Notes under the pieces: generated by a model
Seen by the model: only the letters and a program-made list of their open reading frames with translations
Databases searched by the model: none
Told to the model about the DNA's origin: nothing
Assembly (NCBI GenBank): GCA_001797365.1
Contig: MGPH01000030.1
Location: 1,963-65,962, forward strand
Length of the DNA stretch: 64,000 nucleotides
Source of the DNA: Deltaproteobacteria bacterium GWA2_45_12
GTDB taxonomy: Bacteria > UBA10199
Direction of reading: 5' to 3'
Made by a program: the position numbers and the translations under genes
Shown: positions 11,772 to 52,740 of the stretch, piece after piece
How the letters are laid out: each line of letters opens with the position of its first letter
Numbering within the stretch: the stretch's first letter is position 1

Positions 11772-13343
11772 ATGAAATTTATTGGATACTTTTTATCTTT
11801 TATATTTGTCTTTGTGTTGATGGCTTGCGGTTCTGGCTCAGACAGTAGCAGCGACTCATCAAGCAGTGATGATAACGATCTGGCTGAATCAGCTTATCCC
11901 AGTGGTCTGGCCGTATCTTCTCCTTACTCAAGCTCTGATACAGAAACCAATATTTCGGCATTGGTTATGGCTGCTGTTGGTGATGAGGGGAACGTGACAG
12001 GCCTTCCCTATGAAGAGAAATTGGCCGCCTTGGATGCGGTTGTTAATGGAACAAGTATGAGTGATTGTTTTAATTATGATGCAGATTTGTTCCCGGATGA
12101 GCCCACGGTTTCATGTTATGGACCAGATCTGACATTAAGCGGAACCCATCCTAATGGGGGATTTTCTGGCGGTGGAAGTCAGGGTCTTCCCTCGGGGGAT
12201 CTTGGGCTTTGGGAAGCCAGTGAAGATGGTGGGGAGGCTTGCATTGCTTCCAAGGTGAATTCTGAAATGACGAGTGTTGAAGGACGCATGGATTTTTCGA
12301 TGTTTGCCATGGCCTCTGCTTTTTGTGTGGCCAATAATAACGGGGATACCTTGCCTGCCGTGGGGGGGACTCTTGATCTTTCAACAGCCTTTACTGATGC
12401 TGCCGAGGCTGCCGATTTTACAGGTTTTGATCCCACAACGGTTGTCTTGACCCGCGGGACTGATACCGATGATGGGAATGCCGTTTACACGCTCAACATC
12501 ACCGGTGAAATTGTCAATGAGGATGAAACAACCATGCCCTTTGCCTTGGAAATGACCCATGTTCCTTTGGATGCCACCAATTCGACCTATCAGGGGCTCA
12601 TGCAAGCCACCATTGAAACCAGTGATATTCCCACCTCCAATTGTGGTGCAGGAACTCATACCGTGGGGATGTCGGCTCTTTATGAATTGGCAGCCAGTAC
12701 TGATTTAAGAGTGCAATACAAACAGGCTGTTTTTTGCACCACAGGGGCGACCGATGAGGATATTTTTGATGATGAAGGGGAGGCGGATGCCACTCATAAA
12801 AAGAGTGGGGAATGTTCCGGTGAAACAGGGGTTACCTACAGTGCCACGGGTTGGGGCGATGATTATAATTATCTCCTCATTAATACGGATCCCACGACAG
12901 GATATGGGAACCTTGTTTATGGTTGGCAGGCAGGACGCTGCGATCAAAATACACGCGTCTTCAAGGCTTCCATCAGTGCCGATGGCGGTACAGATAGCAA
13001 TGAAGGAGGCTGCGGCTATTTCGGTTTTGGTGCGGATATTTCGCAAGCAACTCCCGATATCGATGGGATGATTTGTAACTGGACGGGGCCGGGCAGTGGT
13101 GGTTTTGGAAGTCATACGGTCCAGGATTTGGTTCAACGTCAATGTGTTTCACGGGCCAGTGTTACAGACGATTTTGCATCGGTGGCTGCCACTTTGAATA
13201 TTGACTATGCTCCGACCAATAACTGTAATTCAGACGGCTCTCTGTTATGTGATGGAGTGGCTTGCGTGACCACCAATGATCTGTTAGACATCGCTGAAAT
13301 GGATTTTACCGATCCAACAGCCCCCACAGCCCTTGATATTTAA
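11772..13343 (+). CDS. acidic Cys-rich lipoprotein of unknown function
   Basis: 523 aa; signal peptide plus lipobox VLMAC-G; Ser/Asp-rich linker; 22 Cys and many Gly/Asp/Thr; no recognisable catalytic motif. Confidence 0.6.
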   Translation: MKFIGYFLSFIFVFVLMACGSGSDSSSDSSSSDDNDLAESAYPSGLAVSSPYSSSDTETNISALVMAAVGDEGNVTGLPYEEKLAALDAVVNGTSMSDCFNYDADLFPDEPTVSCYGPDLTLSGTHPNGGFSGGGSQGLPSGDLGLWEASEDGGEACIASKVNSEMTSVEGRMDFSMFAMASAFCVANNNGDTLPAVGGTLDLSTAFTDAAEAADFTGFDPTTVVLTRGTDTDDGNAVYTLNITGEIVNEDETTMPFALEMTHVPLDATNSTYQGLMQATIETSDIPTSNCGAGTHTVGMSALYELAASTDLRVQYKQAVFCTTGATDEDIFDDEGEADATHKKSGECSGETGVTYSATGWGDDYNYLLINTDPTTGYGNLVYGWQAGRCDQNTRVFKASISADGGTDSNEGGCGYFGFGADISQATPDIDGMICNWTGPGSGGFGSHTVQDLVQRQCVSRASVTDDFASVAATLNIDYAPTNNCNSDGSLLCDGVACVTTNDLLDIAEMDFTDPTAPTALDI

Positions 13344-15765: not shown

Positions 15766-18700
15766 TTGGGTGGAAGTGATGGGATGACTATGGCTCCCCT
15801 TAAAGATATTCTTTACACGATAAAAAATCCTCAACAGCTCGGCTCGAGCGATCTTCTATGCGCTCCTCCTCCTGGCTCTGATGTGTTTAATCAATCTCCT
15901 TGTACGGTTAGTTCTTTTTCTGCTGAAACGGTGAGCCAGAAAGCGATGAAGAGTGGTTTGATTAGCCCTGATCAAGGTATGGCTTTTAAAAACAGGCTGA
16001 AAGCCTATTTTCGAGAAAATCTTAAAGACACCCAAGTTGATACTCTCGAAGAATATAGTGCGATCTCCAATCTAAACCTTCTTGCCTACCGTCATACCTT
16101 AGAAACAGTTTTTCGCGATAGGAACAATTGGGCGACCTGTTCGGTTCAAGAAGGAATAGCTCTTAAAAGTGCCCTCATGGACAGTGACCTTTATAGGAAA
16201 GTGGCGAATAAAGAAGGAGCTAAATTACTTCATGAACTCGACAATCTTCCATGGGGTGTATTGGCTGAGGAATCCGTTTTTAAACATTGGGTGAATACTT
16301 ATCAGGATAATACTTTCATCAATCTTCTCTTTCACGCGGCAAAGGCAGAGTATCCCGTTGACAAAGCACTGGTCAAATTAATGAAGGAAAAACCAGAGCG
16401 GATGGACCCCATGGATTTTGCTTCCATCCTTCCTTTGAATCTTGCTTCGGTGAATGAATATATCCTTGGAAACGGTGGTCATCCTCCTGAAATTTACAAA
16501 GATCTTCTTGAAAAGGCGCGGGATGATGAAGGCTTCATGAGTTACAGTGCCATTTTAACTTACGGCCTCAACCATGCGCATCCGGAGGCTTTGAGGGAAG
16601 CCAAAGAAATCATCCTTTTTGATTTCCATCATATTTTTGTGCATTTGAGTTCGGATGCAAAAATAGCCCTGAGAATCCTTCTTATACCGCCCCAGGCAAG
16701 GCCAGCTCAAGTCCCTCAATTCTTTGCCGAGGACTTAGAACAGATTCAAGCGGAAGTTCAAAAAGCCTTGCCCGATGTTTATAGGCAAGACAATAATCAC
16801 GCCGCCGAGCTTTTAATCCTCTTTTTGTTGGGATTCGGGGATGAAGATGTTTTTCACGGGGATTGCTGGGAACATCTCGTTTCCATGGAGACCAAGAGAA
16901 AGGGCGATTTTGAGAAGGCCAAAAAAGAATTTGTACCCCTTAGTTTTCAAAGTATCGTGACTGCCATTATGTTTCCCGAGGATGATGCCCTTGATAAGAA
17001 GGCCGCTGTGAAGGCGCTCGTGGTTGCTGCCAAATTGTGGAACCGCGAAGAAAAAGAAAATCCCTGGCCTTATGAGGCTCCTCTGATGCGTCTTCAGGAA
17101 ATCATTAACAAGAGGGGAAATGTCACATTGGAAGCAATGCAGGCCCTCTACAATGTACTGATCGTTAGGAAAGAAGAAGACGAAGAGGTGGAAGCTCAAG
17201 TTCAGCAGAGAAGGGATTTTGCCTTTAAATTTTTTGATAAAGGGATGGAGGCTCAAAAACTAGCTTCTTTTTTTGAAACTTATCTCCAAGATTTTAATAA
17301 TCAAGGCAAGGATGAAGAACTCGATAAATTAATGGGGAATCTTCTTCTCCCTGAAAACAATGCATCCCCAATCTCGCCGCCGGAGCTTCAAAAAACCTAC
17401 GATCTTTTGTGTCTTTTTGCCGGATCACAAACTATGACCCTGGCTGAAAAAGCCATTCCTCTCTTGGTTAAATTAGAGAATCATTCTCTTTATCAACAGA
17501 ACGAAAATTCCCCGATCCAAGTATTAAAACAAATTGTTTTGGACAAAAAGGCAGCTCATCAAGAAGCGTGGGATGCTTTGGCCGGCCTTGTTCTTAAGGA
17601 TAAAAAGCCCGTGGTTTTAGAGGATGAGAAGAAGAAAAAATATATAGGGAATATCGCTGCCATTGCCGGGCCCGAAGAGCAATATTGGGATAATGGTCAT
17701 GTGCTGGATGCTGCTCAGGTTCTTTTGGATTTAGAAAAGAAAACCCACGATGAATTCATTCATCAAACTTTGGTAAGCTTGGATACGGGGGCGTTGGAGA
17801 GTTTGGTGGGGGATTATGCACCTTCTCAGGAGGATACTATGAAGATATTCCATCAGCTCATGGAGCGATGGAAGACGAATCCACCCAAGCATTTTATGAT
17901 TACAGACGATTCGGTATCTGATGGAAAAACTTCTTCTATTAACTTTGCCGCAATCATAGGGCAGGCTAATACGCAAAATCTTGGGATGATTAATGAACTG
18001 ACTCAAAATTTTTCTGACGGTGAAAGAAGAAGAACTCAACAGCGTACTGGGCTTAATCAGGTAGAAATTCCTTCGATTGTTGAAGCTTCTGAAGATACTT
18101 CGGATGCTGAAATCGATGAAAATAAGGGAGATGAAAAAGTATCAGATCCTCTTCAAGCTCTCTCGGATCTGGCCAAGCTTGGGAATGTTTCGGCCTTTGA
18201 ATTCATCCTTGGGCGTTTTCAAAAAGGCGATATTTCCATGGTGAAACCCTTAAAAAATATTTTAAATGATGATGATGCTTCAGAATTTCATTCCAAAATA
18301 ATCGATACGGCGAGGGAGACTTGTCTTCAATTTACGGACCCTGCTTCTAAGAGAGCATCCTTTGATCTCTTAATTGTGGCCGCCGAAAAAGAAAGACCCG
18401 GTTGCTGGGAAGCCTTGTTTCTATCGGCAACGGAACATTTTGAGCTGAGCGTTTCTTGGGAAGGATTGGCCAAGGAGGCCGCTATGGCTTTGCTTAGCAT
18501 GGGAAGTGGCACAGACCCCGAGCAAGTCGATGCGCTTCGCGAATTGGATATTTATCTCGCTTCTCTTGTAGGGTCTTCGGAAATGGCGACGGGTGAATAT
18601 GATCCTCTTCTCGACGATTTTCTGACTTATCCCCATTCCTCTCAATTAATGGAGTTGGAAGCGGCCCTTGAGAAATATAGAGAGAATAGGACCAAACCGC

Positions 18701-38970: not shown

Positions 38971-40275
38971 ATGGCTAAAAAAGATGTTTTAAGTGTCGTT
39001 GATAAACGCACAGGAAAAGAATACGAACTTCCCATTGTGGATGGCACCATTCATGCCACAGATTTAAGGCAGATCAAGGTTGACAAAAATGATTTTGGCC
39101 TGATGAGCTATGATCCCGCTTTTCAAAATACCGCCGCATGTCGCAGTAGCATTACTTACATTGATGGCGATAAGGGCATTTTACGTTATCGTGGGTACCC
39201 CATCGAAGAGCTTGCCGAAAAAAGCACTTACCTGGAAGTGGCCTATCTTCTTATTTACGGCGAGCTTCCCAATGCAGCCCAGCTTAAGGAATGGAACCGG
39301 AATATCATCTATCACACCATGATCCATGAAAAAATCCGCAAGTTCATGGACTGGGGATTTTTATACGATGCCCATCCCATGGGGATTATGGTGGGTTCGT
39401 TGGCGGCTTTGTCCACGTTCTATCCCGATGCCAAAAATATTGCGGATGAAACCTGCCGCAATCTTCAGAGCTATCGTATGTTGGGTAAGGTGACGACGGT
39501 GGCCGCTTATACCTACCGTCACAGTTTGGGGCTCCCCTTTGTTTATCCCGACAACGAGCTTAGTTATACGGGTAATTTTTTGAACATGCTTTTTAAAATG
39601 ACCGAGCCCAAGTTCAAACCCAATCCCGTTTTTGAAAAAGCCCTTGATCTTCTTTTCATCCTTCATGCCGACCACGAACAAAATTGTTCCACTTCCGCCA
39701 TGCGTATTGTGGGTTCGTCCCATGCCGATCCTTTTTCGGCGTTATCAGCGGCCACCTGTGCCCTTTACGGGCCCCTTCATGGCGGGGCCAACGAGGCCGT
39801 TGTACGCATGCTTAAGGAAATCGGGTCGATTGCCAATGTTCCCCCATTCATCAAAAAAGTGAAGAAGGGGGAAGGCAAGCTCATGGGGTTTGGCCACCGT
39901 GTTTACAAAAACTACGATCCACGGGCCAAGATCATCAAAAAAATGGCAAACAAGGTGTTTGCAGAAACGGGAAAAAATCCCCTCCTGGACATTGCCCTTG
40001 AGTTGGAGCGCATTGCCCTTGAAGACGATTATTTTATAGAACGCAAACTCTATCCCAATGTCGATTTCTATTCGGGGCTTATTTATCAGTCGATGGGTTT
40101 TCCCATCTCCATGTTTCCTGTTCTGTTTACCATTGGCCGCACGGCAGGCTGGGTGGCCCAGTGGCGTGAGCTTATTGTTGATAAAGAACAAAAGATCGCC
40201 CGCCCACGGCAGATTTATACGGGGTCTGGTCTCAGAAAATATGTTCCCTTAAATAAGCGTGGGAAGAATAAATAA
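38971..40275 (+). CDS. gltA: citrate synthase
   Basis: 434 aa; catalytic His and Asp motifs (GPLHGGANE, GFGHRVYK, DPRA). Confidence 0.92.
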   Translation: MAKKDVLSVVDKRTGKEYELPIVDGTIHATDLRQIKVDKNDFGLMSYDPAFQNTAACRSSITYIDGDKGILRYRGYPIEELAEKSTYLEVAYLLIYGELPNAAQLKEWNRNIIYHTMIHEKIRKFMDWGFLYDAHPMGIMVGSLAALSTFYPDAKNIADETCRNLQSYRMLGKVTTVAAYTYRHSLGLPFVYPDNELSYTGNFLNMLFKMTEPKFKPNPVFEKALDLLFILHADHEQNCSTSAMRIVGSSHADPFSALSAATCALYGPLHGGANEAVVRMLKEIGSIANVPPFIKKVKKGEGKLMGFGHRVYKNYDPRAKIIKKMANKVFAETGKNPLLDIALELERIALEDDYFIERKLYPNVDFYSGLIYQSMGFPISMFPVLFTIGRTAGWVAQWRELIVDKEQKIARPRQIYTGSGLRKYVPLNKRGKNK

Positions 40276-42128: not shown

Positions 42129-42200
42129 GTAATCACTTTTCTTGAAAAAGGCCCATAAAAAATTAGACAAATAGTGATTCTTGCTTTATCTTTTCGGGCT

Positions 42201-44399
42201 ATGACAAAAAAAATCCATTTTTTAATCATTTCCTTTTTCTTTCTCACCCTCTTTTTTAATCCATCATACGCCCAGGAACAGGGTCAGCCAAAAACAGATC
42301 TTCTTTTCATTATTGATTCCTCCGGAAGCATGGCCTCCCTTCTTGAAGGGCAGCGCATGATTGACTGGGCCAAAAAGGCTGTGAAAAGTGCCGCAGCCCA
42401 ACTGCCGCCCGAGGCTTACGCAGGACTTCGTGTTTATTCCCACCGTATCGATAAAAGTAACAAGGAAGCTAGTTGCAAGGATACGGAATTAGTTGTTCCC
42501 ATTTCTTCAGGAACAGGTTCGCTGATTGCGGCCTCTGCCGACAAGCTTGAGCCCCGCGGATGGACACCTATTGCCTATACTCTTTCGCAGGTGGAAGCCG
42601 ACTTTAACCAGAATGTCGAAAAACTTCATACCATTATCCTGGTCAGTGATGGGGAGGAAACCTGCGGCGGCGATCCGGCTGCGGTCATGCGCGCTTTGGT
42701 GGCCAAAGGGTATAAATTCAAGCTCTGCACGGTAGGGTTTAATGTGGAGGATGTGGCCAAACAACAACTCATGGCCTTAGCCAGCGAATTTGGCTGCACT
42801 TACACCGATGTTCGTAGCGGTATGTCGTTGGAGCAGGAATTGGCCAAGCTGACACAGCAAAGTTTTCTCATTGAAAAGAAGGTGAACCCAAAAAATCAAA
42901 TACGCGGTGGAGACAGTTTTAATGATGCCGTCCCCATTGAAACCAACAAGAGATACAGCCTGGACCATCATCAAAGGAAGGATCAATACGATTATTTTTC
43001 GTTTAAACTAAAGCAAGGTGAGGCCGTCTCTCTCCGAGTTTTCCCGGTTGAAAAATGCCTGGATGTCGTCGGGGATCAGGCGACAGAGCGCGCCAGCAGT
43101 TCGTGCGACTACGATGGGCTGCGGTATGTGTTGATGGATGGGCAGCAAAAAGAATTGGAGAGGTTGTCATTTTTCCTCGTCAACAAGCAGCATGAAACCG
43201 ATTTCTATACTTCTTCAGCACCAGGAGAGACCCTCTACTATCTCATCATTGGTAGCCCCTATGATGAAATGCATAAAGATCATGAATTCATCCTGACGAC
43301 CAAGCAGGGTACTTATACAGTGACGGGGTCATTGGGGGACGCCAATACGAATAATGATGCAGGGGATAATTTTTCTACCGCCATTGTTCTGTCTCCAGGC
43401 ATTTATGAAAACAACAGTGTTTCCAAAATGGATCAAGTGGACGTCTTTAAGGTGGTTTTGAAGGAACCTTCTTTGGTAAAACTTGTCGGTACCCATGTGA
43501 AAAAATCGGATTATGCGGATATTGATTTTGAGATTTTGGATGAATTAGGGGCCGTTCTTGGTAGCCAGGACCTTAGCGAAGGCAATTCCTATTCATTCCA
43601 GCCTCAAAGTCCGTTATCGGGCGCTATCTATCTGCGGGTCAAAATCGATTCCGTCATTGTGGATTCGGATACGGTCAATTATTCAATGGGTGTGTCGGTA
43701 AGCCCTGCACCGGTGGAGTTGATCGCAAAAGCCGTCGAAAAAACGCCTCCTCAAAAATCATCGGTGGAAGAAGTGGATGAAATGGAAGAGGTGGTTTTGG
43801 ATATAGTGCCATCCCCTCAAAAATTTACTCTGTGGCTGGGATTGGTTGCCTTGGCCTTTGCGCTGTTTGCTGGCCTGTATGTATTTTTCTTTGTGGTACG
43901 CAAAAAGGTCGCCGTGGATTTGTTCTCAAAAATTTTAGGGTGGTATGAGATCTTTGCCAGCATTATCGGCATGGGCACGGCTATTTGGCTAGCCACCAAG
44001 CAGCCTTCGCTTGCCTGGCAGATCGTGCTTTTGGTGATGCTTGGAGGCGTTGGTCTGCTTGGCATTATCGCCGGTGGAAATCTCTTATTGAACAAGGGGA
44101 GCAAACTTAGTTTTATTTGGGGAGGCCTCCAAGCCCCCTGGATTTACCTAAACCTTCATTGGGTGGTGGTGAAATATAGTCTTTCCTTGTTTTGGGGCCT
44201 GCCTGTTTACTTCTTCTTTGAAACGTCCCAAAACCCTATCGTCAATGTCCAGTCCAAAATGCATCTCGGGGCCCTATTTGGCTTATGGGCGCAATTCCTT
44301 TTCCCGGGAAGGGGCATGGGGATTGGTCTGGGCGTCAATCTGGCCGCGGTCCTGTTTTTGGGATTGTTGTATTTGAACCAGAGAAAAAAGACGAATTAA
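42201..44399 (+). CDS. von Willebrand factor A domain protein with a C-terminal polytopic membrane region
   Basis: Signal peptide; MIDAS DSSGS (FIIDSSGSM); about 6 predicted C-terminal TM helices. The start is taken at MTKKIHF (42201). Confidence 0.65.
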   Translation: MTKKIHFLIISFFFLTLFFNPSYAQEQGQPKTDLLFIIDSSGSMASLLEGQRMIDWAKKAVKSAAAQLPPEAYAGLRVYSHRIDKSNKEASCKDTELVVPISSGTGSLIAASADKLEPRGWTPIAYTLSQVEADFNQNVEKLHTIILVSDGEETCGGDPAAVMRALVAKGYKFKLCTVGFNVEDVAKQQLMALASEFGCTYTDVRSGMSLEQELAKLTQQSFLIEKKVNPKNQIRGGDSFNDAVPIETNKRYSLDHHQRKDQYDYFSFKLKQGEAVSLRVFPVEKCLDVVGDQATERASSSCDYDGLRYVLMDGQQKELERLSFFLVNKQHETDFYTSSAPGETLYYLIIGSPYDEMHKDHEFILTTKQGTYTVTGSLGDANTNNDAGDNFSTAIVLSPGIYENNSVSKMDQVDVFKVVLKEPSLVKLVGTHVKKSDYADIDFEILDELGAVLGSQDLSEGNSYSFQPQSPLSGAIYLRVKIDSVIVDSDTVNYSMGVSVSPAPVELIAKAVEKTPPQKSSVEEVDEMEEVVLDIVPSPQKFTLWLGLVALAFALFAGLYVFFFVVRKKVAVDLFSKILGWYEIFASIIGMGTAIWLATKQPSLAWQIVLLVMLGGVGLLGIIAGGNLLLNKGSKLSFIWGGLQAPWIYLNLHWVVVKYSLSLFWGLPVYFFFETSQNPIVNVQSKMHLGALFGLWAQFLFPGRGMGIGLGVNLAAVLFLGLLYLNQRKKTN

Positions 44400-46840
44400 A
44401 CTTCATATCCATCCCTACGCATGATTTCGGCGCGGATGATTAAATAGTCATAAAGGAATCGTCTTACTCGTTCCAGCCTTGATTCTATATCTATATCAAG
44501 CATGGGTATAAAAATTGAACTCAGTATGTCAGGAGTGTAATCAGGAACCTCACCATAGTAAACATAGGCCACAAGAATCATTTCCAACCAAAAACTATCT
44601 TCTCGGGGATAAATAAATTTTCCTTCTTTGACATCGTGTACCTTTTCATAACGATCACCGTTAAAGAATTTAAACAAGGCCGCTTCGGTTTTTTCGTTCA
44701 AAAGGGAATAATATTCAGATTGTTCAGGTGGAATGTGTTCCAAACCTTCCGGCCCCAGGGGGGTAAAATGCCACGGATAGGCAATGTTCCTGCCTTCTTC
44801 GGGGATGTATTTTTCAAGAAACTCGTCTTTTCGGGTGAGGTAGTAAAACAAAAAGAATTTGCTTTCATCCGACCACGCATAACCATCGAGTACTTTTCTT
44901 GCTAGATCCAAAGACAATTCAACCTTATCATCACTTCCCCGAGTGTGTAGCCATAGCAGCGTGGCTCCCAACCGTGGCGGCATCGCATCAAGGGGTTTAA
45001 TGTTCAATAGCTTTGCCATTAATCCCAAAAGACCCATGAATTCGTGCAATACTTCAAGCTTTTGATCGTTGCTCCATTGCGTATCTTTCAACACTGCCTT
45101 GGCTCGGCCCTCGAAAAGTAAGTTTTCAACGGCATCAACTAATTTTAAATCACCAAAATCTTCAAAGACGACTCGCGCTATGTTAAGACCCTTAGCATCA
45201 TGTATGCTCTTACGCCCTTGGTAGAAAGCGTGGGCTCTTTCATTGGCTTCTAAGACTTCGGCAATCGCCGAAGTTCTATCGAGCCTTCTTGTCGCCATTT
45301 CTTCAAGTTCGGTAAGATAGCGTTTATAAGCCTCGATGAGTGCCAATGTTTCTTGAACTGTTGGGGTTGGTTTTGCCTTGTCCTCGTTGGGAATTAAAAA
45401 AGCATATTTTTTTCTGAAGAGGGCGAGGGCTCTTTGGGAAAACTCCCTGTATTCGGGGGTTATTTCCAGGATGGGGTCTGGGTCTCGTGCTATTGATTCT
45501 GCATTTCTAACAAAACGAATCTCAACTGAGTCCCATTTACGCGGCGCTCGTAAGGTTGGACCATTTCTCCAAACCCCACTTTCTGTTCCCCAGATAAGAC
45601 AAAGGGAATGAAAAATTCTTGCACGTACCGTCTTATAAAATTCATCTTCATGCCCTTCGATTTTTTTGGTGCCATCGACATCCAAATTTACAAAACGACC
45701 ATCATCAGTGATGAGATACGTATTGTATTTCATGTCCTCCATGCGGTAGCCTTTTTCGGCCAATTCTTCGTACATGCGCATGGCCGTGCGTGCGTATCCG
45801 ATTCGTTTTGATGGATGTTGAAATAAAGGCCTGAGTCCTTGGGGATTGCCTAATGGTTTCATGGAATCATAACGATAATGATCCCCAAAATACCACCCAG
45901 TCACGTATTCCATCAAATAGGCGTTGTGGGCCACAAATTGCCTTTTCACAACTCCTGTTACGCCTTCAAGAAGAGGCAAGCTTTCCCGAAAGACGTGCTC
46001 CCAACCGGCTTTAAACAGCTTCAAGCAGATGGGCTTGCCTTGTTCGTCGCGCAATAAATAAACATTTGCCGATGCCCCATCTCCCAAAATTTTTTCCACA
46101 GTATAGATTGTTTCATTCAATAAACAGGACCTTCCTATTTGTACGGTCAGTTTGGAAACGATGTAAGCATTTCTTGCTATGGGTTTATGGGGCACCTCAC
46201 TTGGTGTAAGTATTTGGCCCTGTTTTAATATTCTTAAATAAAGAAAATCTCCTTCAATGATAGGACCTTTAATAGCATTTGTTGCTAACAGGGAATAAAC
46301 ATCCGAGGTGGGGTCACTTTCAATGCGGCTCGTAACGACATAGGTAACCCTGCCTATGGTGATCGTTGTTCCTAGACTAATGGGTGGTAAATCCCTGGTT
46401 AGATCTTCATCGACTATTACAGCACTTCCGGAACCACCTTCTGAAACAGTTAGGCTTCCCACTTGAGCTCGATGATCGCCCGGTGGATCGGAAGCACCCA
46501 TCATCTGCGGTCTTCTTAAGGGCAGCGTGCCTAATTCTTCTATAGCTCGAGTTGGTACTTTTTGTTCTAGGCCCGTTAGTTCTAAGCTTAAGGGCAGGGC
46601 CATGGCCGATGCGGCTTCTGCGAGCGTTTTAAAACGTGTGGGGGGAGTAAGCCTGAGGGCTAAAGGAACGGGGGCCAAAGAGCCATCATCGTACCCGTCT
46701 TTTGTATGTGATTTTGGGGTTGATGAGGGGGCATTTTTGGGATGTACCCGTGGTGCCCCGCTTACCCCAAGCCTGAAAGGGCCGCCCGGCATGGGGCGGA
46801 GGGGTATTGTTCTGGGAGTAAAAGAGAGAAGCTTGCTCAT
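44396..46840 (-). CDS. 814 aa protein with a divergent eukaryotic-like Ser/Thr kinase fold and a Pro-rich N-terminus
   Basis: Gly-loop LGDGASANVY, Lys motif ICLKLFK, Glu in FRESLPLLEG, hinge LMEYVTG, a catalytic-loop-like YRMEDMKYNTYLI (D-x-K-x-N) and DVDG in place of DFG. Its stop overlaps the stop of the convergent VWA gene. Confidence 0.5.
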   Translation of the reverse strand: MSKLLSFTPRTIPLRPMPGGPFRLGVSGAPRVHPKNAPSSTPKSHTKDGYDDGSLAPVPLALRLTPPTRFKTLAEAASAMALPLSLELTGLEQKVPTRAIEELGTLPLRRPQMMGASDPPGDHRAQVGSLTVSEGGSGSAVIVDEDLTRDLPPISLGTTITIGRVTYVVTSRIESDPTSDVYSLLATNAIKGPIIEGDFLYLRILKQGQILTPSEVPHKPIARNAYIVSKLTVQIGRSCLLNETIYTVEKILGDGASANVYLLRDEQGKPICLKLFKAGWEHVFRESLPLLEGVTGVVKRQFVAHNAYLMEYVTGWYFGDHYRYDSMKPLGNPQGLRPLFQHPSKRIGYARTAMRMYEELAEKGYRMEDMKYNTYLITDDGRFVNLDVDGTKKIEGHEDEFYKTVRARIFHSLCLIWGTESGVWRNGPTLRAPRKWDSVEIRFVRNAESIARDPDPILEITPEYREFSQRALALFRKKYAFLIPNEDKAKPTPTVQETLALIEAYKRYLTELEEMATRRLDRTSAIAEVLEANERAHAFYQGRKSIHDAKGLNIARVVFEDFGDLKLVDAVENLLFEGRAKAVLKDTQWSNDQKLEVLHEFMGLLGLMAKLLNIKPLDAMPPRLGATLLWLHTRGSDDKVELSLDLARKVLDGYAWSDESKFFLFYYLTRKDEFLEKYIPEEGRNIAYPWHFTPLGPEGLEHIPPEQSEYYSLLNEKTEAALFKFFNGDRYEKVHDVKEGKFIYPREDSFWLEMILVAYVYYGEVPDYTPDILSSIFIPMLDIDIESRLERVRRFLYDYLIIRAEIMRRDGYEV

Positions 46841-46947
46841 CTATGGGTTATTTCGGTCATTTTTAAGAAAAGTTGTGGAGTTTTATGGAGTGGTTTATGG
46901 GGTAGAGACGAATGTTGGTGGGAAGTTTTGAGGTGGGGGCTATAGGT

Positions 46948-48732
46948 TTATTTTACCGACCATCCATTGGCTTCGCATATTTCAACATATGCTTCGGCAA
47001 TGCATTGAGTGCGCTCCTTAGCCGCCCGTTCAGCTTCTTTTCCTTGGTGTGCAAATCGATCGGGATGGTTTTCTTGCATCAATCGTAGAAAGGTTTTTTT
47101 AATGTCTGCTTGGGACGCGTCCCTGGCAATACCCAAAACGTAATAATAGGGATCTAGGTCTTTCCTTGTAGGCCTTTGATGGGTCTTTTTCCCTTGCTGG
47201 TTCGGCCCTCTTGCCTCTTGCTGTCCTGTTGTCTGTGGCGTGGGAATTTTAAAAGCTTTCGCTTTTCCAAATTTAACCCATGTTCCCGGTCCGACATACA
47301 CCTGACGATCAGAGCTTTTTAAAACCTCGATCCGGCCTCCAGGATGAAAAATATAAATAACCTTCCCACTCCCATCATGGGTTTCACTACTGATTCTAAG
47401 GTTAAAACCTTCTTTTTCTCGTTTCACTTGAAAATGAACTCCGCCATCATAATGTAATCCGTGGGAATGAGGGTAGATGTATCGATCAAAATCACTGAGC
47501 GATCTTAACCAAGCAGGCATGTTTCGAATGGGGAATCCAAATTGTATGAGTTGCCCCCCTATTTTATAAATCCGCCCCAATCGCAAGAAAACGGTTTCTC
47601 CTGCTGGTACTTGTCGTTTACTTCCACTATCAAAAACTTCTAATTCACCCTTTTCCAGACGAATCCCGAGGCCTTTGCCATTTTCTGGACTGTAGAAGAA
47701 TTCATAAGTCGATCCTCCGATGCTTTTTTTGAAAGGTGTATGGGGTTGATCATAGGCGTAAATGAGCCATCCCGTCATCCAAAGTGGCATGAGGGATATG
47801 GGGTTGATGAAACGATAGTATTGGCCGGGGCCATATTGGATGAGGTCCCCATCCACAAGAATATGTGTGGGCTTTTCTGCATTTAATGCGCGACGGTCAC
47901 GGTTGTTAATAACATGGAGTGGTTCACCATTTTTCCATGTCAACACAGGGTTGCTTTCAGCATCGTAGGAGATGCTTCCTTGTGAGGGGCCAGCATCAAT
48001 AGCTACAGATGCTTTGTTGTCAACGGCGGCTCCAATAAGAGCTGCCCCCATCGCTTCAGGCATTTCATCAAAGGGTTTGGTGAATTTGAAATATTGTTTG
48101 CCTATCTTAATGACCGCATCAAAAGGAATGCATTCTTCTTTTCCGGGTTTTAGTAAAACAGGTTCTTCCCCATCACGTAAAATGACCATGTCATAATAAT
48201 CCACCGTGAGGGTATTTCCTGTAGGTTGCCCATTGATCAGGCTATAGCCCCTTCCTGCTTGATACCGAATTCCATAATAGGGTTTTTCGTTAAATCCTCC
48301 TACCCTTTGACCCGGATTGCTCACAGCTTTTACACAGCTTTCAATGAAATAACTCGGCATGGGTTGGATTAATCTCTTATAGAGGAAAAATTTTCTATTC
48401 CCCATTTTGACCGAATCTCCTTCTTGGAGGACCTCTTTTTTACCAGAGGAATTCAGAACGATTTTTGTTTTATTCTCCTTTTTGACAATGACGATGGCCT
48501 CTCCTCCGGTCCATTCAAGAGTGAGCGCCCAAGGGTCTTCTTGGGTTACCTTTGCCTGAGCATGACCTATGTTAATGGTGGTTCCTTCAGGTTTTAAAAG
48601 AGTGGTGGCCAAAGCAATTTCTTCGGACTGGTTCATTTTTTCAAAGGGGCTACGAAACACAAAGGGAGGTTCATGGCCAAGGGTGATGATATCCCCATCT
48701 TTAAGTACAAGCTTCTGATCTCTAGAGTCCAA
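46948..48732 (-). CDS. C-terminal fragment: six degenerate FHA-like repeats + DnaJ J-domain (HPD)
   Basis: Repeat ends DIITLGHEPPFVF, DSVKMGNRKFFLY, DAVIKIGKQYFKF, DLIQYGPGQYYRFI, RIYKIGGQLIQFGF and TWVKFGKAKAFKI. J-domain DPYYYVLGIARDASQADIKKTFLRLMQENHPDRF...KEAE...EAY. Confidence 0.6.
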   Translation of the reverse strand: MDSRDQKLVLKDGDIITLGHEPPFVFRSPFEKMNQSEEIALATTLLKPEGTTINIGHAQAKVTQEDPWALTLEWTGGEAIVIVKKENKTKIVLNSSGKKEVLQEGDSVKMGNRKFFLYKRLIQPMPSYFIESCVKAVSNPGQRVGGFNEKPYYGIRYQAGRGYSLINGQPTGNTLTVDYYDMVILRDGEEPVLLKPGKEECIPFDAVIKIGKQYFKFTKPFDEMPEAMGAALIGAAVDNKASVAIDAGPSQGSISYDAESNPVLTWKNGEPLHVINNRDRRALNAEKPTHILVDGDLIQYGPGQYYRFINPISLMPLWMTGWLIYAYDQPHTPFKKSIGGSTYEFFYSPENGKGLGIRLEKGELEVFDSGSKRQVPAGETVFLRLGRIYKIGGQLIQFGFPIRNMPAWLRSLSDFDRYIYPHSHGLHYDGGVHFQVKREKEGFNLRISSETHDGSGKVIYIFHPGGRIEVLKSSDRQVYVGPGTWVKFGKAKAFKIPTPQTTGQQEARGPNQQGKKTHQRPTRKDLDPYYYVLGIARDASQADIKKTFLRLMQENHPDRFAHQGKEAERAAKERTQCIAEAYVEICEANGWSVK

Positions 48733-48751: not shown

Positions 48752-50188
48752 TAAATCCGGCGTGAATGGTGTAGGGAATGCCTCCTTTGCTCAACACTGA
48801 CAGGCATTATAGAGTTTTTTGTGGCTAGTATTGAACCTAACTTTTAGTTAGCTTCAATACATGCGTTCTGGGGCTCGAAAAATCCGTACAAAATTCACCG
48901 CGTCTGGCCTCACTCATTTCGGTGGAATTTATCTCTTTCATAAATTTCTCCAGCAACTAAAAATACGATCCTGCTTCTTCCGACACCTGTCTTATTCTCA
49001 GAGAAACAATCAGTATTCTTTGAGCGAAATGATTTTGGCTTTGATTTATCCAATGATTCTTGGTTTGGAAAAAATCGAAGTGTCTTCTCTTCTGAAAACA
49101 AATGGCGTCTTTCATTTTCTGACTGGGCTCCCAACCTTTCCCGATCCTCAAACATTGCGCCGATTTTTGGTGAGGTCATCGACGGAACTGCTGCCGTCAC
49201 TTTGGAAAGTCCACAATGATCTCAAAAAATATTTCATCCTTCAATCTTCTACCCTCTCAAGTTTCTGTTTTGATTTTGATTCCACCGCGAAGACTCTCTA
49301 CGGAAAACAGGAAGGCGTGGTCAAAGGTTACAACCCCGGACATCCAGGAAGAAAATCCTATCACCCGCTGGTCGTCTCAGAAAGTTCTCTCAAGGATTGT
49401 CTGGGTGGATTTTTAAGGCCGGGGAACGCTTACACCTCAGATGGTGTGGTTGATCTTTTTCAACAAGCCCGTTCTATTCTGCCAACTTCCATCCGCTTGC
49501 GCACCCGTGCCGATTCAGGGTTTTATGATGGTTCTTTTGTCCGGACGCTGGACGAAAATCACGTGAAGTTTGCCATTGTTGCCAAGACATCTTCTCCTCT
49601 GAAGAAACTTTTTCTTTCGGCCCGCTATCAAAGAATCAACGACCGATTCTCAACCTCCGAGCTTTTGTATCAACCCGGCAAATGGAAAAAACCTTATCGC
49701 TATGTCGTCTTGAGAAGGATCGTTGATCCGGAAGACGACGGACTCACTCTTTTTACCTTGGACCGATATGCCTACTCGATGATCGTCACCAATCTCGATA
49801 TCACACCCTACGGAGTCTTCGATTTTTATAAAGCTCGAGCCGGGTTGGAAAGGATTATCCGGATTTTGAAAAACGACTTTCCTTTTGCCGGAGCGCCGAC
49901 CAATCATTTTTGTGCGAATGCTCTCTACGCGGAACTTTCTCTTTTGGCGTACAATCTCGTCATGTGGTTCAAGCGACTTTGTCTGCCGGGTGATTGGCAA
50001 TCCTTCACGTTGGAATCACTTCGGCACAAATTATTGCTGATGCCGGGAGAGTTGGTGCATACCGGAAATATTCACACACTCAAATTTCCGAGAAACAGTC
50101 CCAACAAGGATGTCTTTGAATTTGCTCTGAAGAAAATTAAAACGATGGACTCGCTGGTCTGAAAAATGGTGTTTTCACGCCGGATTTA
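48752..50188 (+). mobile_element. IS1380-family insertion sequence (~1.44 kb) with 15 bp perfect TIRs TAAATCCGGCGTGAA and a 9 bp direct repeat GTATCTCCT
   Basis: Left IR 48752-48766; right IR 50174-50188 (reverse complement identical). Direct repeats at 48743-48751 and 50190-50198; on the right a single G (50189) separates the IR from the repeat. Confidence 0.8.
48861..50162 (+). CDS. IS1380-family DDE transposase
   Basis: 433 aa; VKGYNPGHPGRKSYHPLVV matches the GYNP...Y.P hallmark of IS1380/ISEcp1-type transposases. RADSGFYDGSFV carries the second catalytic Asp. Confidence 0.85.
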   Translation: MRSGARKIRTKFTASGLTHFGGIYLFHKFLQQLKIRSCFFRHLSYSQRNNQYSLSEMILALIYPMILGLEKIEVSSLLKTNGVFHFLTGLPTFPDPQTLRRFLVRSSTELLPSLWKVHNDLKKYFILQSSTLSSFCFDFDSTAKTLYGKQEGVVKGYNPGHPGRKSYHPLVVSESSLKDCLGGFLRPGNAYTSDGVVDLFQQARSILPTSIRLRTRADSGFYDGSFVRTLDENHVKFAIVAKTSSPLKKLFLSARYQRINDRFSTSELLYQPGKWKKPYRYVVLRRIVDPEDDGLTLFTLDRYAYSMIVTNLDITPYGVFDFYKARAGLERIIRILKNDFPFAGAPTNHFCANALYAELSLLAYNLVMWFKRLCLPGDWQSFTLESLRHKLLLMPGELVHTGNIHTLKFPRNSPNKDVFEFALKKIKTMDSLV

Positions 50189-50851
50189 GGTATCTCCTCT
50201 CTTAACTTCAATGGGCAGTCCCCATACATGATAGGTGATTGTTACTTCATCAAAATAAACAGATCCTTGGAGTTTATATTGGTTGTGGAGACGGTATTGC
50301 CCCTCCTGTCCATGATTCACTTCGACAGAAAATCCCTCATTCATAAAAGTCCGGAAAACTCCCGCTTCAAAGATTGCTGGCATTTCCTCGCTGGGTGGTA
50401 CCGCAGCGGGAACAATAGCTGGAGGCGGTTCAGGAGCTGGAGGCGGAGGAACGGCACGAGCAGATCCACCCGAATCTTGAGCCACATGATGGCGAAAAGG
50501 AGTTTGCAGTCGATAACCCGGATTTGTAGTTCTTCGACCCGATCCATCGTTGGAAGCCATTTCGGGAAACAGAGCTCTGACCCCATCTTCTCTTAAACTT
50601 GGAAGTTGTTGCCCTTTCAAAACAAATTCATCCCTTCCATCAGAAGGGGCCCCCACAGCCAGTCGACGATTTTCTCGAGAACGTGAGACAGGTTGAGGAG
50701 GTTGAAGATCAGCTGGAGATGAAGATGGAGACAAATGAGGTCGCAAAGATGCGCCCGGTTTAGTTCCCCTAACGCGAGGGAAGGGGCCCCATCCTACGGG
50801 ACGAACACTGGGGCGAAAAGGCAGCACATTATTGGTACGAAAGATGGCCAT
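50186..50851 (-). CDS. N-terminal fragment of the interrupted gene (Pro-rich, 221 aa)
   Basis: AGGAGG lies 4 nt upstream of the ATG at 50849-51; PPPPAPEPPPAIVPAAVPP low-complexity segment. Confidence 0.6.
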   Translation of the reverse strand: MAIFRTNNVLPFRPSVRPVGWGPFPRVRGTKPGASLRPHLSPSSSPADLQPPQPVSRSRENRRLAVGAPSDGRDEFVLKGQQLPSLREDGVRALFPEMASNDGSGRRTTNPGYRLQTPFRHHVAQDSGGSARAVPPPPAPEPPPAIVPAAVPPSEEMPAIFEAGVFRTFMNEGFSVEVNHGQEGQYRLHNQYKLQGSVYFDEVTITYHVWGLPIEVKRGDT

Positions 50852-50925: not shown

Positions 50926-52740
50926 TTAGGAAGGTCTTTCTTGGAGGGCTCTTTGCAGACCTTCTATTCCCTGAGCCATCATGCTTTTAACAAAGTCATT
51001 AGAAGAGCCTTTTTTTCTGAACACAATAGCTGAAGCCCCTTGTGGAGAAGCATTCAGGTCGTTATCTATTTCCAAACCCAGTGTCTGCATTAAGTTTGCA
51101 TCCGGGCTATAGGGAAGAAGACTTCCTAACATGTTCGGAACAATGGTGGGCCCATTTCGTGGATCCGTAAATAAATAACCCTCTGGCACAAGAGCATCAA
51201 CAATTCGAATAAGGGTGAGCAGGCTAAAAATCCTGTCCCTCCGATCGCCATCGAGATAATCCTGAACAGGATGGAAGTAAGCCCCATGCATGGGAGGAAA
51301 TTCAACAGGGGTCACCACATAATCTCCCCTGGGTTGGAGTGTTATCCTTTTTTTAAGAGAATCACCGGGAATCCTTAGTGTAGCGACCGCAGCGGCTTTT
51401 TTTCCATGCCCCCTCATCCAAGTGACCCCTCTAACAGGAGTGGCTGAGGTACTCGAAATGAACGCCTCATAGGCTTTTCTTTCGGCCCTCACTTCCTCCC
51501 GCCACCGTGCCCCATAGGCTTGCCAAAACATCTGAGCGATTTCGGGATCATCAGGATAGAGTTCATAGGGGACCCAACTTAAAAAAACGGTAAGGGTACC
51601 ATCAAACTCATCAATGAGCTTAAGTGGTTCTGGTTCATCATTATAAACAAGGACGCGCATTTTTGGATCCAGACTCGCTAAAAGAAAGGGCTCATAAGTA
51701 GCATAGAGGGTACGTCCATTAGGATGATCAAATTTTAAATATCCAGGGCCAAAATTACCAAAAACGATTTCCTGATAGCGTTCCCTTAAACGAGGAATGA
51801 TGTTTTCCCTTAAATAAATCCATTCGGCAGCTCGTCGCGCAAACGTGGTGAAGTTGCGTATGATTCTGATGTCATCCCTGGTGCGACCGCGGTTCTCTCT
51901 GGCTTCCCTTAAAGAAGGAGTCGCATGGACGACGCCCTCTGGTCCCATAGCCAAGCGTGCTTGCGTCGCTCGATATACATTATCAGCTGTAACAATTCGA
52001 GAAACCCGTTCCATTTCAGCTCGGACGGAATCTGGTAGAGGTTCGACAGGAGTCACTGCGCCCACTTCCATTTCATCGGCAAGGGATGGGATATGGGCTA
52101 AAATCAACCCTTCTACATGGGCCGGGTCTGCTAAAAAATTTTCTGCACCAGCACCCAATTTTTTTACAAATTCTAAAACTCGTTCGATAACGAGGGCACG
52201 ATTAGCAGCTACTATCGTGGGGTCCCGGTCCAGGGCCAAAGCCAGTGAGGCACGTTCGCTTATGCTACTCATGCGAGCCATAAAATCAGGGTTTGAAAGG
52301 ATGCGAGTCACAACTTCTTTACTCTTTATAGCAATACCTTGATCAGGACTTATTGATGAATCTGCAGGCCGATCACTGCTGGCGGCTTTCCATCCCTCAT
52401 GATGATGCCCCACTAAATTCCCATGCCCATCGTATTGGGGAACCCACAAGGGAGCACGAAGGGAAGGAGTGTGTAAGCTTATGTCTGGAAAGGGAGTGGT
52501 TCTATTCCAATATCGATCTTTCCCGATGTCTGGCGCTAGTGAGCTATTTGTATGAAGCAAATCACCTGGTTTTAAGCTTACCTTTGCAACACTTTTTGAA
52601 CGAGAAGGAGGTGGAATAACGGGATGTGGTGTTGGCCTTAATACAAGGCTTCCGGGTACAATACGTGCACCAGAAAAAGATCGAAGGGGTCTATAGAAGG
52701 ATGGCGGACTCATAAATAAATGATAGTTGATCTTCGGCAA
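50926..52740 (-). CDS. 604 aa hypothetical protein (Pro-rich N-terminus; no known domain)
   Basis: The ORF-track start is TTG; the first ATG is at codon 10. It is in frame with, and separated by a single TGA from, the upstream squalene/phytoene-synthase-family ORF. Confidence 0.5.
   Translation of the reverse strand: MPKINYHLFMSPPSFYRPLRSFSGARIVPGSLVLRPTPHPVIPPPSRSKSVAKVSLKPGDLLHTNSSLAPDIGKDRYWNRTTPFPDISLHTPSLRAPLWVPQYDGHGNLVGHHHEGWKAASSDRPADSSISPDQGIAIKSKEVVTRILSNPDFMARMSSISERASLALALDRDPTIVAANRALVIERVLEFVKKLGAGAENFLADPAHVEGLILAHIPSLADEMEVGAVTPVEPLPDSVRAEMERVSRIVTADNVYRATQARLAMGPEGVVHATPSLREARENRGRTRDDIRIIRNFTTFARRAAEWIYLRENIIPRLRERYQEIVFGNFGPGYLKFDHPNGRTLYATYEPFLLASLDPKMRVLVYNDEPEPLKLIDEFDGTLTVFLSWVPYELYPDDPEIAQMFWQAYGARWREEVRAERKAYEAFISSTSATPVRGVTWMRGHGKKAAAVATLRIPGDSLKKRITLQPRGDYVVTPVEFPPMHGAYFHPVQDYLDGDRRDRIFSLLTLIRIVDALVPEGYLFTDPRNGPTIVPNMLGSLLPYSPDANLMQTLGLEIDNDLNASPQGASAIVFRKKGSSNDFVKSMMAQGIEGLQRALQERPS

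Follow-up and report, generated by a model that had tools for sequence, protein, structure and literature searches.

A divergent protein-kinase-like domain with D-x-D in place of DFG in an uncultured groundwater bacterium

During our analysis of a 64,000-nucleotide stretch of contig MGPH01000030.1 (the window, meaning the whole stretch of DNA that was analysed), one open reading frame on the minus strand raised the question of whether its product, which carries motifs reminiscent of protein kinases, belongs to that superfamily, and if so whether it would be catalytically active. A preliminary description of this DNA had read the product as a divergent protein-kinase-like fold and had allowed for either an atypical kinase or a pseudokinase. 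Our preferred reading, at a probability of roughly 0.6 and based on sequence comparison and modelling, is that the ORF product is soluble and built of several parts, with a core (residues ~233-520) that belongs, as a far-diverged member, to the Hanks-type kinase superfamily and would act as an active phosphotransferase, broadly by the mechanism outlined below.

Reading frame, protein layout and genomic setting

The region of interest corresponds to exactly one entry in the ORF list, and its product can be divided as follows.

44396..46840, minus strand: whole ORF, 814 aa plus stop
46451..46840, minus strand: residues 1-130, Pro-rich (14.6% P) with weak coding signal
46775..46822, minus strand: N-terminal motif F-x-P...R-P...G-P-F, common only to the neighbouring J-domain gene
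46145..46450, minus strand: residues 131-232, ordinary composition and clear coding signal
45281..46144, minus strand: residues 233-520, kinase-like domain, with an extent common to the stand-alone relative P0004
44399..45280, minus strand: C-terminal helical domain (residues 521-814), which of the relatives only the giant paralogue P0003 also has

The 814-aa form is called by JGI, ENA and Logan, and the NCBI annotation begins at M113 (ATG at 46502-46504), giving a 702-aa version. From residue 113 on the frame has clear support from codon usage, which is ambiguous for residues 1-112; the N-terminal motif common to the J-domain gene would slightly favour M1 as the true start. The Pro-rich leader, earlier put at about 250 aa, proved to be Pro-rich over about residues 1-130, which are probably disordered, whereas residues 131-232 are of ordinary composition, and a search for homologues of or family matches to this second segment found none. 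Similarly, of the tail of about 350 aa described as helical, the stretch that reaches about residue 520 is still part of the kinase C-lobe. Nowhere in the protein did we find a hydrophobic stretch long enough for a signal peptide or transmembrane segment.

Immediately upstream on the same strand lies a gene that has been split by an insertion sequence.

46948..48732, minus strand: 3' fragment of the upstream gene (594 aa), encoding repeats and, at the C-terminus, a J domain that has the HPD motif
48752..50189, no strand assigned: IS element splitting the upstream gene, recognised by inverted repeats, target duplication and transposase
48861-50162, plus strand: DDE_Tnp_1_4 transposase ORF of the IS
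50186..50851, minus strand: 5' fragment of the interrupted gene (221 aa), with a stop codon that falls within the terminal repeat of the IS

The element has perfect 15-nt terminal inverted repeats (48752-48766 and 50174-50188) and a 9-bp target duplication (GTATCTCCT). In-silico removal of 48752-50198 fused the ORF at 50186-50851 in frame to the J-domain ORF, restoring an 818-aa protein with a Pro-rich N-terminus, six repeats of ~90 aa and the J domain. Because this upstream gene is interrupted, expression of the kinase ORF is uncertain in this genome. We considered FHA-like repeats, which would bind phosphothreonine, as a link between the J-domain protein and the kinase and set the idea aside, as there was no sequence support for the repeats being FHA-like; the repeat profile matched no PDB sequence (best E 0.046, a pilin) and no Pfam family, and nothing similar to the repeats occurs in the kinase protein. 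In six-frame scans of the window the F-x-P...R-P...G-P-F motif was found in these two neighbouring genes only. Compared with shuffled sequences the similarity of the two leaders was marginal (p about 0.017 over 60 residues and 0.14 over the full Pro-rich regions), and for us a shared N-terminal leader is no more than a hint.

Around the kinase ORF, scans for promoters and terminators did no better than shuffles, and Rfam and tRNA searches of the window gave no match. The remaining window genes are ordinary chromosomal housekeeping genes, encoding tRNA synthetases, LepA, PurH, citrate synthase, RodA/FtsW and aconitase-family enzymes. The citrate synthase has at most 72% identity to GTDB species representatives, across many phyla, indicating that the host organism has no close sequenced relative.

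Relatives and homology to protein kinases

An exhaustive HMMER search of 1.84 billion representative proteins returned 4 matches, which provided two relatives beyond near-identical copies. Identical proteins are on record as OGP09265.1 (Deltaproteobacteria bacterium GWA2_45_12) and HBF12326.1. The first relative, P0003, is a paralogue in the same genome (GCA_003501025.1, contig DNQF01000146.1); it is 4320 aa long (4998 aa in the other assembly), and its last ~515 residues align to residues 233-805 of the kinase ORF with 33% identity, so that the kinase and helical parts are conserved together as a module over 573 residues (blastp 8e-81). Elsewhere along this giant protein there are two enzyme-like regions, one resembling PP2C (E 9.9e-5, below threshold) and one resembling a methyltransferase, as well as three hydrophobic segments. 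The paralogous module is also on record under OGP09214.1. The second relative, P0004, is a stand-alone protein of 354 aa that aligns to residues ~232-515; it is a singleton from one Logan assembly, where it adjoins an archease gene.

Further searches did not enlarge the family. Queries of a 5.8-billion-protein index with the kinase protein, the family profile and P0004 returned only the kinase protein itself or P0004; no additional relatives were found in GTDB species genomes, the paralogue alone was found in JGI metagenomes, and there were no relatives among viral contigs, plasmids or phages. The helical domain (residues 521-814) is conserved in P0003 only, at about 33% identity; it had no Pfam match, and its profile retrieved nothing from PDB sequences. 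The neighbours of the kinase ORF, the paralogue and P0004 are unrelated to one another, with no conserved neighbourhood, and genomic context thus provides no functional clue.

Single-sequence searches were of little help in placing the kinase ORF. Pfam gave no match to the protein or to the isolated domain even at E<=10, and NCBIfam did not recognise the protein, returning two marginal Gly-loop matches to kinase models (E about 0.09), one of which (MAD6, E 0.089) was restricted to the Gly-loop region. The PADLOC anti-phage defence models matched neither the kinase ORF protein nor four neighbours at E<=1. A single-sequence search of the PDB pointed to designer pentatricopeptide repeat proteins, which we rejected as a repeat artefact of the summed score (the independent E per repeat was about 300).

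A family profile built from the three domains (those of the kinase ORF, P0003 and P0004) gave a different picture. Searched against all PDB sequences it matched PKA with E=1.7e-7 and retrieved 779 sequences at E<=10, the best 60 of which were all protein kinases; a longer family profile gave 93 matches at E<=1e-3, and those listed were likewise all protein kinases. As a control, the same three sequences reversed gave 0 matches at E<=10, and the mapping of kinase motifs onto this protein is beyond chance. Alignment of the family profile to PKA with hhalign had 96.6% probability (E 6.4e-10). Pfam Pkinase (PF00069) was the top but sub-threshold family for both P0003 and P0004 (E 0.0028 and 5.7e-5 for the two relatives, 17.5 and 23.1 bits, relative to a gathering score of 31.7 bits).

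An AF2 model of residues 226-520 reached pLDDT 69.8 and pTM 0.70, these values coming from an alignment of 3 sequences only and with catalytic loop residues 370-373 at pLDDT below 50. Foldseek matched this model to 1344 PDB chains at E<=1e-3 (best GAK, E 1.8e-7), and the best 50 of these were all protein kinases. The domain-only model replaced an AlphaFold model of residues 226-814 (589 aa) that was unusable at pLDDT 47; the Foldseek matches of that poor model were all kinases, yet with E about 0.02. In the domain model a bilobal kinase fold is seen, with a beta-rich N-lobe that includes helix C and a helical C-lobe. The N-lobe consists of beta1-beta3 (244-276), a short, broken helix C (281-291) and beta4-beta5 (300-311), followed by a low-confidence loop (319-339), helix E (343-362) and beta6 (365-367). 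The C-lobe continues with beta7-beta9 (375-393), helix F (398-417) and more helices up to residue 517, such that two to three C-lobe helices follow helix F within the kinase-like domain. One insertion interrupts this part.

45485..45583, minus strand: insertion after helix F, residues 420-452, absent from the paralogue and of low model confidence (420-447)

Modelling with structural alignment had been suggested at the outset as the way to decide whether the protein has any structural similarity to kinase folds, and the profile search, hhalign and the AF2/Foldseek comparison all led to protein kinases. We regard the protein-kinase-like fold as very likely.

Catalytic residues, proposed mechanism and rival explanations

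All of the motifs listed in the preliminary description are present at the sites it gave.

46058..46087, minus strand: Gly-rich loop LGDGASANVY, residues 252-261; G253, G255 and V260 invariant
Minus strand: CLKLFK, residues 272-277
46019..46021, minus strand: codon of K274, the invariant beta3 Lys, equivalent to PKA K72 by alignment
Minus strand: hinge MEYVTG, residues 310-315
45710..45739, minus strand: catalytic loop EDMKYNTYLI, residues 368-377; D369 and K371 invariant
45671..45682, minus strand: DVDG, residues 387-390; D387 and D389 invariant, G390 not

Alignments to PKA by hhalign and HMMER agreed with the earlier subdomain mapping of the Gly-loop (G253/G255/A258/V260 equivalent to PKA G50/G52/G55/V57), the beta3 Lys (K274, K72), the hinge (M310-E-Y-V, M120-E-Y-V), the catalytic loop (D369 and K371, D166 and K168) and the Mg-binding Asp (D387, D184). 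The reading of DVDG as a replacement for DFG held insofar as D387 falls in the register of the DFG Asp; its Gly, however, is not conserved, and the conserved motif is D-x-D. The helix C residue E286 is invariant, with HMMER placing it one residue off PKA E91 and helix C being short in the model.

Across the three relatives, which have pairwise identities of 28-43% and 36 invariant columns out of 206, all eight canonical positions are invariant (G253, G255, V260, K274, E286, D369, K371 and D387; probability by chance about 1e-6, assuming independent columns), as is D389. The third Gly-loop Gly position (A258) is A/G/G, the other Gly-loop positions being invariant. In our reading, invariance of canonical positions at this level of divergence is the signature of selection on catalysis, and since the residues in question are retained in three distant relatives we favour an active enzyme.

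The family also departs from the canon in several places. The His and Arg of HRD are absent (M-E-D, F-P-D and M-F-D in the three relatives), with D369 and K371 kept; the catalytic Asn comes one residue early, position 373 (+4) being N/N/D and the canonical +5 being T/V/T. The DFG equivalent is D-[V/L]-D (DVDG, DVDM and DLDR), with V/V/L at the Phe position and the invariant D389 at that of the Gly. In the model helix F starts at residue 398, just about 10 residues after D387; an APE motif was found in none of the three sequences, there is no activation loop or P+1 loop, and where helix F would be expected to have its Asp all three relatives have Ala.

These departures bear most directly on whether the domain is a pseudokinase, i.e., has kept the fold and lost catalysis, so that, joined to the helical domain, it would serve to bind nucleotide or as a scaffold. 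The loss of the HRD His/Arg, the displaced Asn, the Asp in place of the DFG Gly, the missing APE and the helix F Ala are all in line with this, several of them also occur in pseudokinases, and the protein falls under every curated kinase-family threshold. A pseudokinase, however, is usually defined as having lost the beta3 Lys, catalytic Asp or DFG Asp, and here all three relatives retain K274, D369 and D387, as they do the Gly-loop glycines and the D-x-K lysine, a pattern expected from purifying selection on catalysis. The Z score of IRAK3 (14.3) did not stand apart from those of active kinases (13.7-13.2). We therefore consider a pseudokinase unlikely, though it is the most serious competitor, and an active kinase the more likely of the two.

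If the domain is an active kinase, we envisage that ATP would bind under the GxGxxA Gly-loop, anchored by K274, probably with E286 as its partner; D369 would serve as catalytic base, and K371, the D-x-K lysine, would contact the gamma-phosphate. The metal would be bound by D387, and N373 and/or the invariant D389 may serve as second ligand in place of the canonical Asn, an altered metal site being suggested by the shifted Asn together with the extra invariant Asp. The enzyme would be a non-RD kinase in which the ~10 residues between D-x-D and helix F leave it with no activation loop, APE motif or P+1 pocket, and without an activation loop, control by activation-loop phosphorylation is unlikely. 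Substrate choice would then probably lie elsewhere, most plausibly with the ~300-aa helical domain, for which we infer a substrate-recruiting or regulatory role because it has been inherited together with the kinase domain in two paralogues. A D-x-K lysine is typical of Ser/Thr protein kinases, and Ser/Thr specificity would be the expectation here.

An activation segment and P+1 loop might also be missing from a small-molecule or lipid/sugar kinase of the APH, choline kinase or Kdo-kinase style, in which case the helical domain that comes after the kinase core would form the substrate pocket; in several such families D-x-[D/E] replaces DFG, much like the D-x-D seen here. We consider this improbable. 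Pfam searches at E<=10 with the protein and at E<=1 with its relatives gave no match to APH (PF01636), choline kinase or Kdo/WaaP (PF06293), these families are absent among the PDB sequence and structure matches listed, all of which are protein kinases, and the D-x-K lysine is a feature of Ser/Thr protein kinases. A kinase fold performing other chemistry, as in SelO (AMPylation) and SidJ (glutamylation), is very improbable: bacterial effectors do include kinase folds with non-kinase chemistry, and the metal-binding region is unusual in its extra invariant D389 and shifted Asn, but the ATP-anchoring Lys and Glu, the Gly-loop and the catalytic Asp are in canonical register and no search we ran gave similarity to the SelO or SidJ families.

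A more far-reaching joint reading, which we hold to be doubtful, would combine three elements. The kinase and helical domains would form a lineage-restricted "warhead" module, carried on a multi-enzyme protein of 4320-4998 aa and also as a stand-alone protein; the shared Pro-rich leader would be the label of a group of proteins whose export or co-localisation follows a route not yet recognised; and the module would work with a non-canonical metal site (D-x-D, shifted Asn) and select its substrates without an activation segment.

Comparison with known kinases

The kinase ORF has in common with the Hanks-type Ser/Thr kinases (PknB, YabT and PpkA) and with PF00069 the Gly-loop, beta3 Lys, M-E-Y-V hinge, D-x-K loop and Mg-binding Asp. 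It differs from them in falling under the Pfam threshold, in lacking the HRD His/Arg and having its Asn one residue early, in having D-x-D for DFG with ~10 residues to helix F and no APE, and in having Ala for the helix F Asp followed by a ~300-aa helical domain unique to it. On this comparison the domain is homologous to the Hanks-type, or eukaryotic-like, Ser/Thr kinases and probably works like them.

Its pared-down core resembles those of OspG/NleH and HopBF1, in which the activation segment is also shortened or absent. Unlike these effectors, which are not among its listed top sequence or structure matches, the kinase ORF keeps a fuller C-lobe with helix F and later helices; no secretion signal or system was identified for it, and its host is a groundwater MAG and no known pathogen. 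Such minimal effector kinases have reduced cores and limited sequence similarity to eukaryotic kinases (PMC9950578).

Regarding the NAK family (GAK and AAK1), scores were essentially flat across many kinase families and show no specific relationship to NAK kinases, and we take the J-domain parallel to be, in all likelihood, coincidental.

If active, this protein would be a further case of a kinase core pared down and rewired (no HRD His/Arg, shifted Asn, D-x-D and an activation segment of ~10 residues), here from an uncultured groundwater lineage without close genomic relatives. Curated family models miss kinase domains as divergent as this one, and a profile of three sequences recovers them. 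That the module recurs on a giant multi-enzyme protein is a hint of domain shuffling between the very large proteins of this host. The wider significance is limited in that both fold and likely chemistry are well known and uncultured lineages commonly have divergent kinases; even so, a shifted Asn, D-x-D, hardly any activation segment and a second use on a giant multi-enzyme protein make a combination worth a biochemical look. Set against the known systems, the domain is best placed in a new subfamily of its own within the protein-kinase superfamily, very small and divergent and equipped with a novel accessory domain.

A J-domain gene interrupted by an IS element

The kinase gene (44396-46840, minus strand) has as its same-strand upstream neighbour a J-domain gene, which is split by an IS element:

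46948-48732 and 50186-50851, minus strand: two parts of the split J-domain gene
48752-50189: IS element with a DDE_Tnp_1_4 transposase, 15-nt perfect inverted repeats and a 9-bp target duplication, GTATCTCCT

When 48752-50198 was deleted in silico, we obtained a single in-frame ORF of 818 aa. Residues 155-721 of this restored protein, which draw on both gene parts, consist of six beta-rich repeats of ~90 aa in tandem, each closing with a motif like G-D-x-[IV]-x-x-G-x(3)-F-x-F, and the J domain, with its HPD, comes after them. The repeat profile matched no Pfam family and no PDB sequence.

N-terminal motif and start site of the kinase gene

The kinase gene and the adjoining J-domain gene each encode, at the N-terminus, a short motif, F-x-P...R-P...G-P-F, which six-frame scans of the window detected at no other site; the alignment between the two copies was of marginal significance (p about 0.017). 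The annotated start of the kinase gene differs by source: NCBI places it at M113, giving a 702-aa protein, and JGI, ENA and Logan place it at M1, giving 814 aa. Residues 1-112 had an ambiguous coding signal, and an antisense ORF (46527-46931, plus strand) had an equal score.

46775-46822, minus strand: motif, kinase gene
50780-50818, minus strand: motif, J-domain gene
46502-46504, minus strand: candidate start M113
46838-46840, minus strand: candidate start M1

Other genes of the window and host lineage

Convergent to the kinase gene is a gene for a VWA-domain protein, the end of which overlaps the region of the kinase gene's stop codon by 4 bases. The next gene upstream of the J-domain gene, like the kinase and J-domain genes themselves, encodes a Pro-rich N-terminus.

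42174-44399, plus strand: VWA-domain protein, 741 aa, with signal-like N-terminus, VWA domain and multi-TM C-terminal region
50926-52740, minus strand: 604-aa protein, Pro-rich N-terminus, no Pfam match
11772-13343, plus strand: 523-aa lipoprotein-like protein, Ser/Asp/Thr/Gly-rich, no Pfam match at E<=1e-5
15766-19197, plus strand: 1143-aa protein, mainly helical judging by sequence, no Pfam match at E<=1e-5

Citrate synthase (38971-40275, plus strand) had at most 72% identity to GTDB r232 species representatives, with its best matches dispersed among Acidobacteriota, Binatia, Syntrophobacteraceae and others, and a search of these representatives did not recover the kinase gene. The host lineage thus appears to lack a close representative in that collection.

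Relatives of the kinase, spurious and genuine

Designer pentatricopeptide repeat (PPR) proteins were rejected as relatives of the kinase ORF; their summed E-values (1e-7 to 1e-8) were misleading because the stretch from helix E to the catalytic loop (residues 348-376, 45713-45799), GYARTAMRMYEELAEKGYRMEDMKYNTYL, resembles the PPR consensus. The same genome encodes a giant paralogue:

4770-17732 of contig DNQF01000146.1 (assembly GCA_003501025.1): giant paralogue of the kinase, 4320 aa

In another assembly this protein is annotated with 4998 aa, an upstream 667-aa ORF being fused to it. It contains PP2C-like and methyltransferase-like regions (both sub-threshold), Pro/Thr-rich linkers and three hydrophobic segments, and its C-terminus is the kinase domain with a ~300-aa helical domain that is common to both paralogues.
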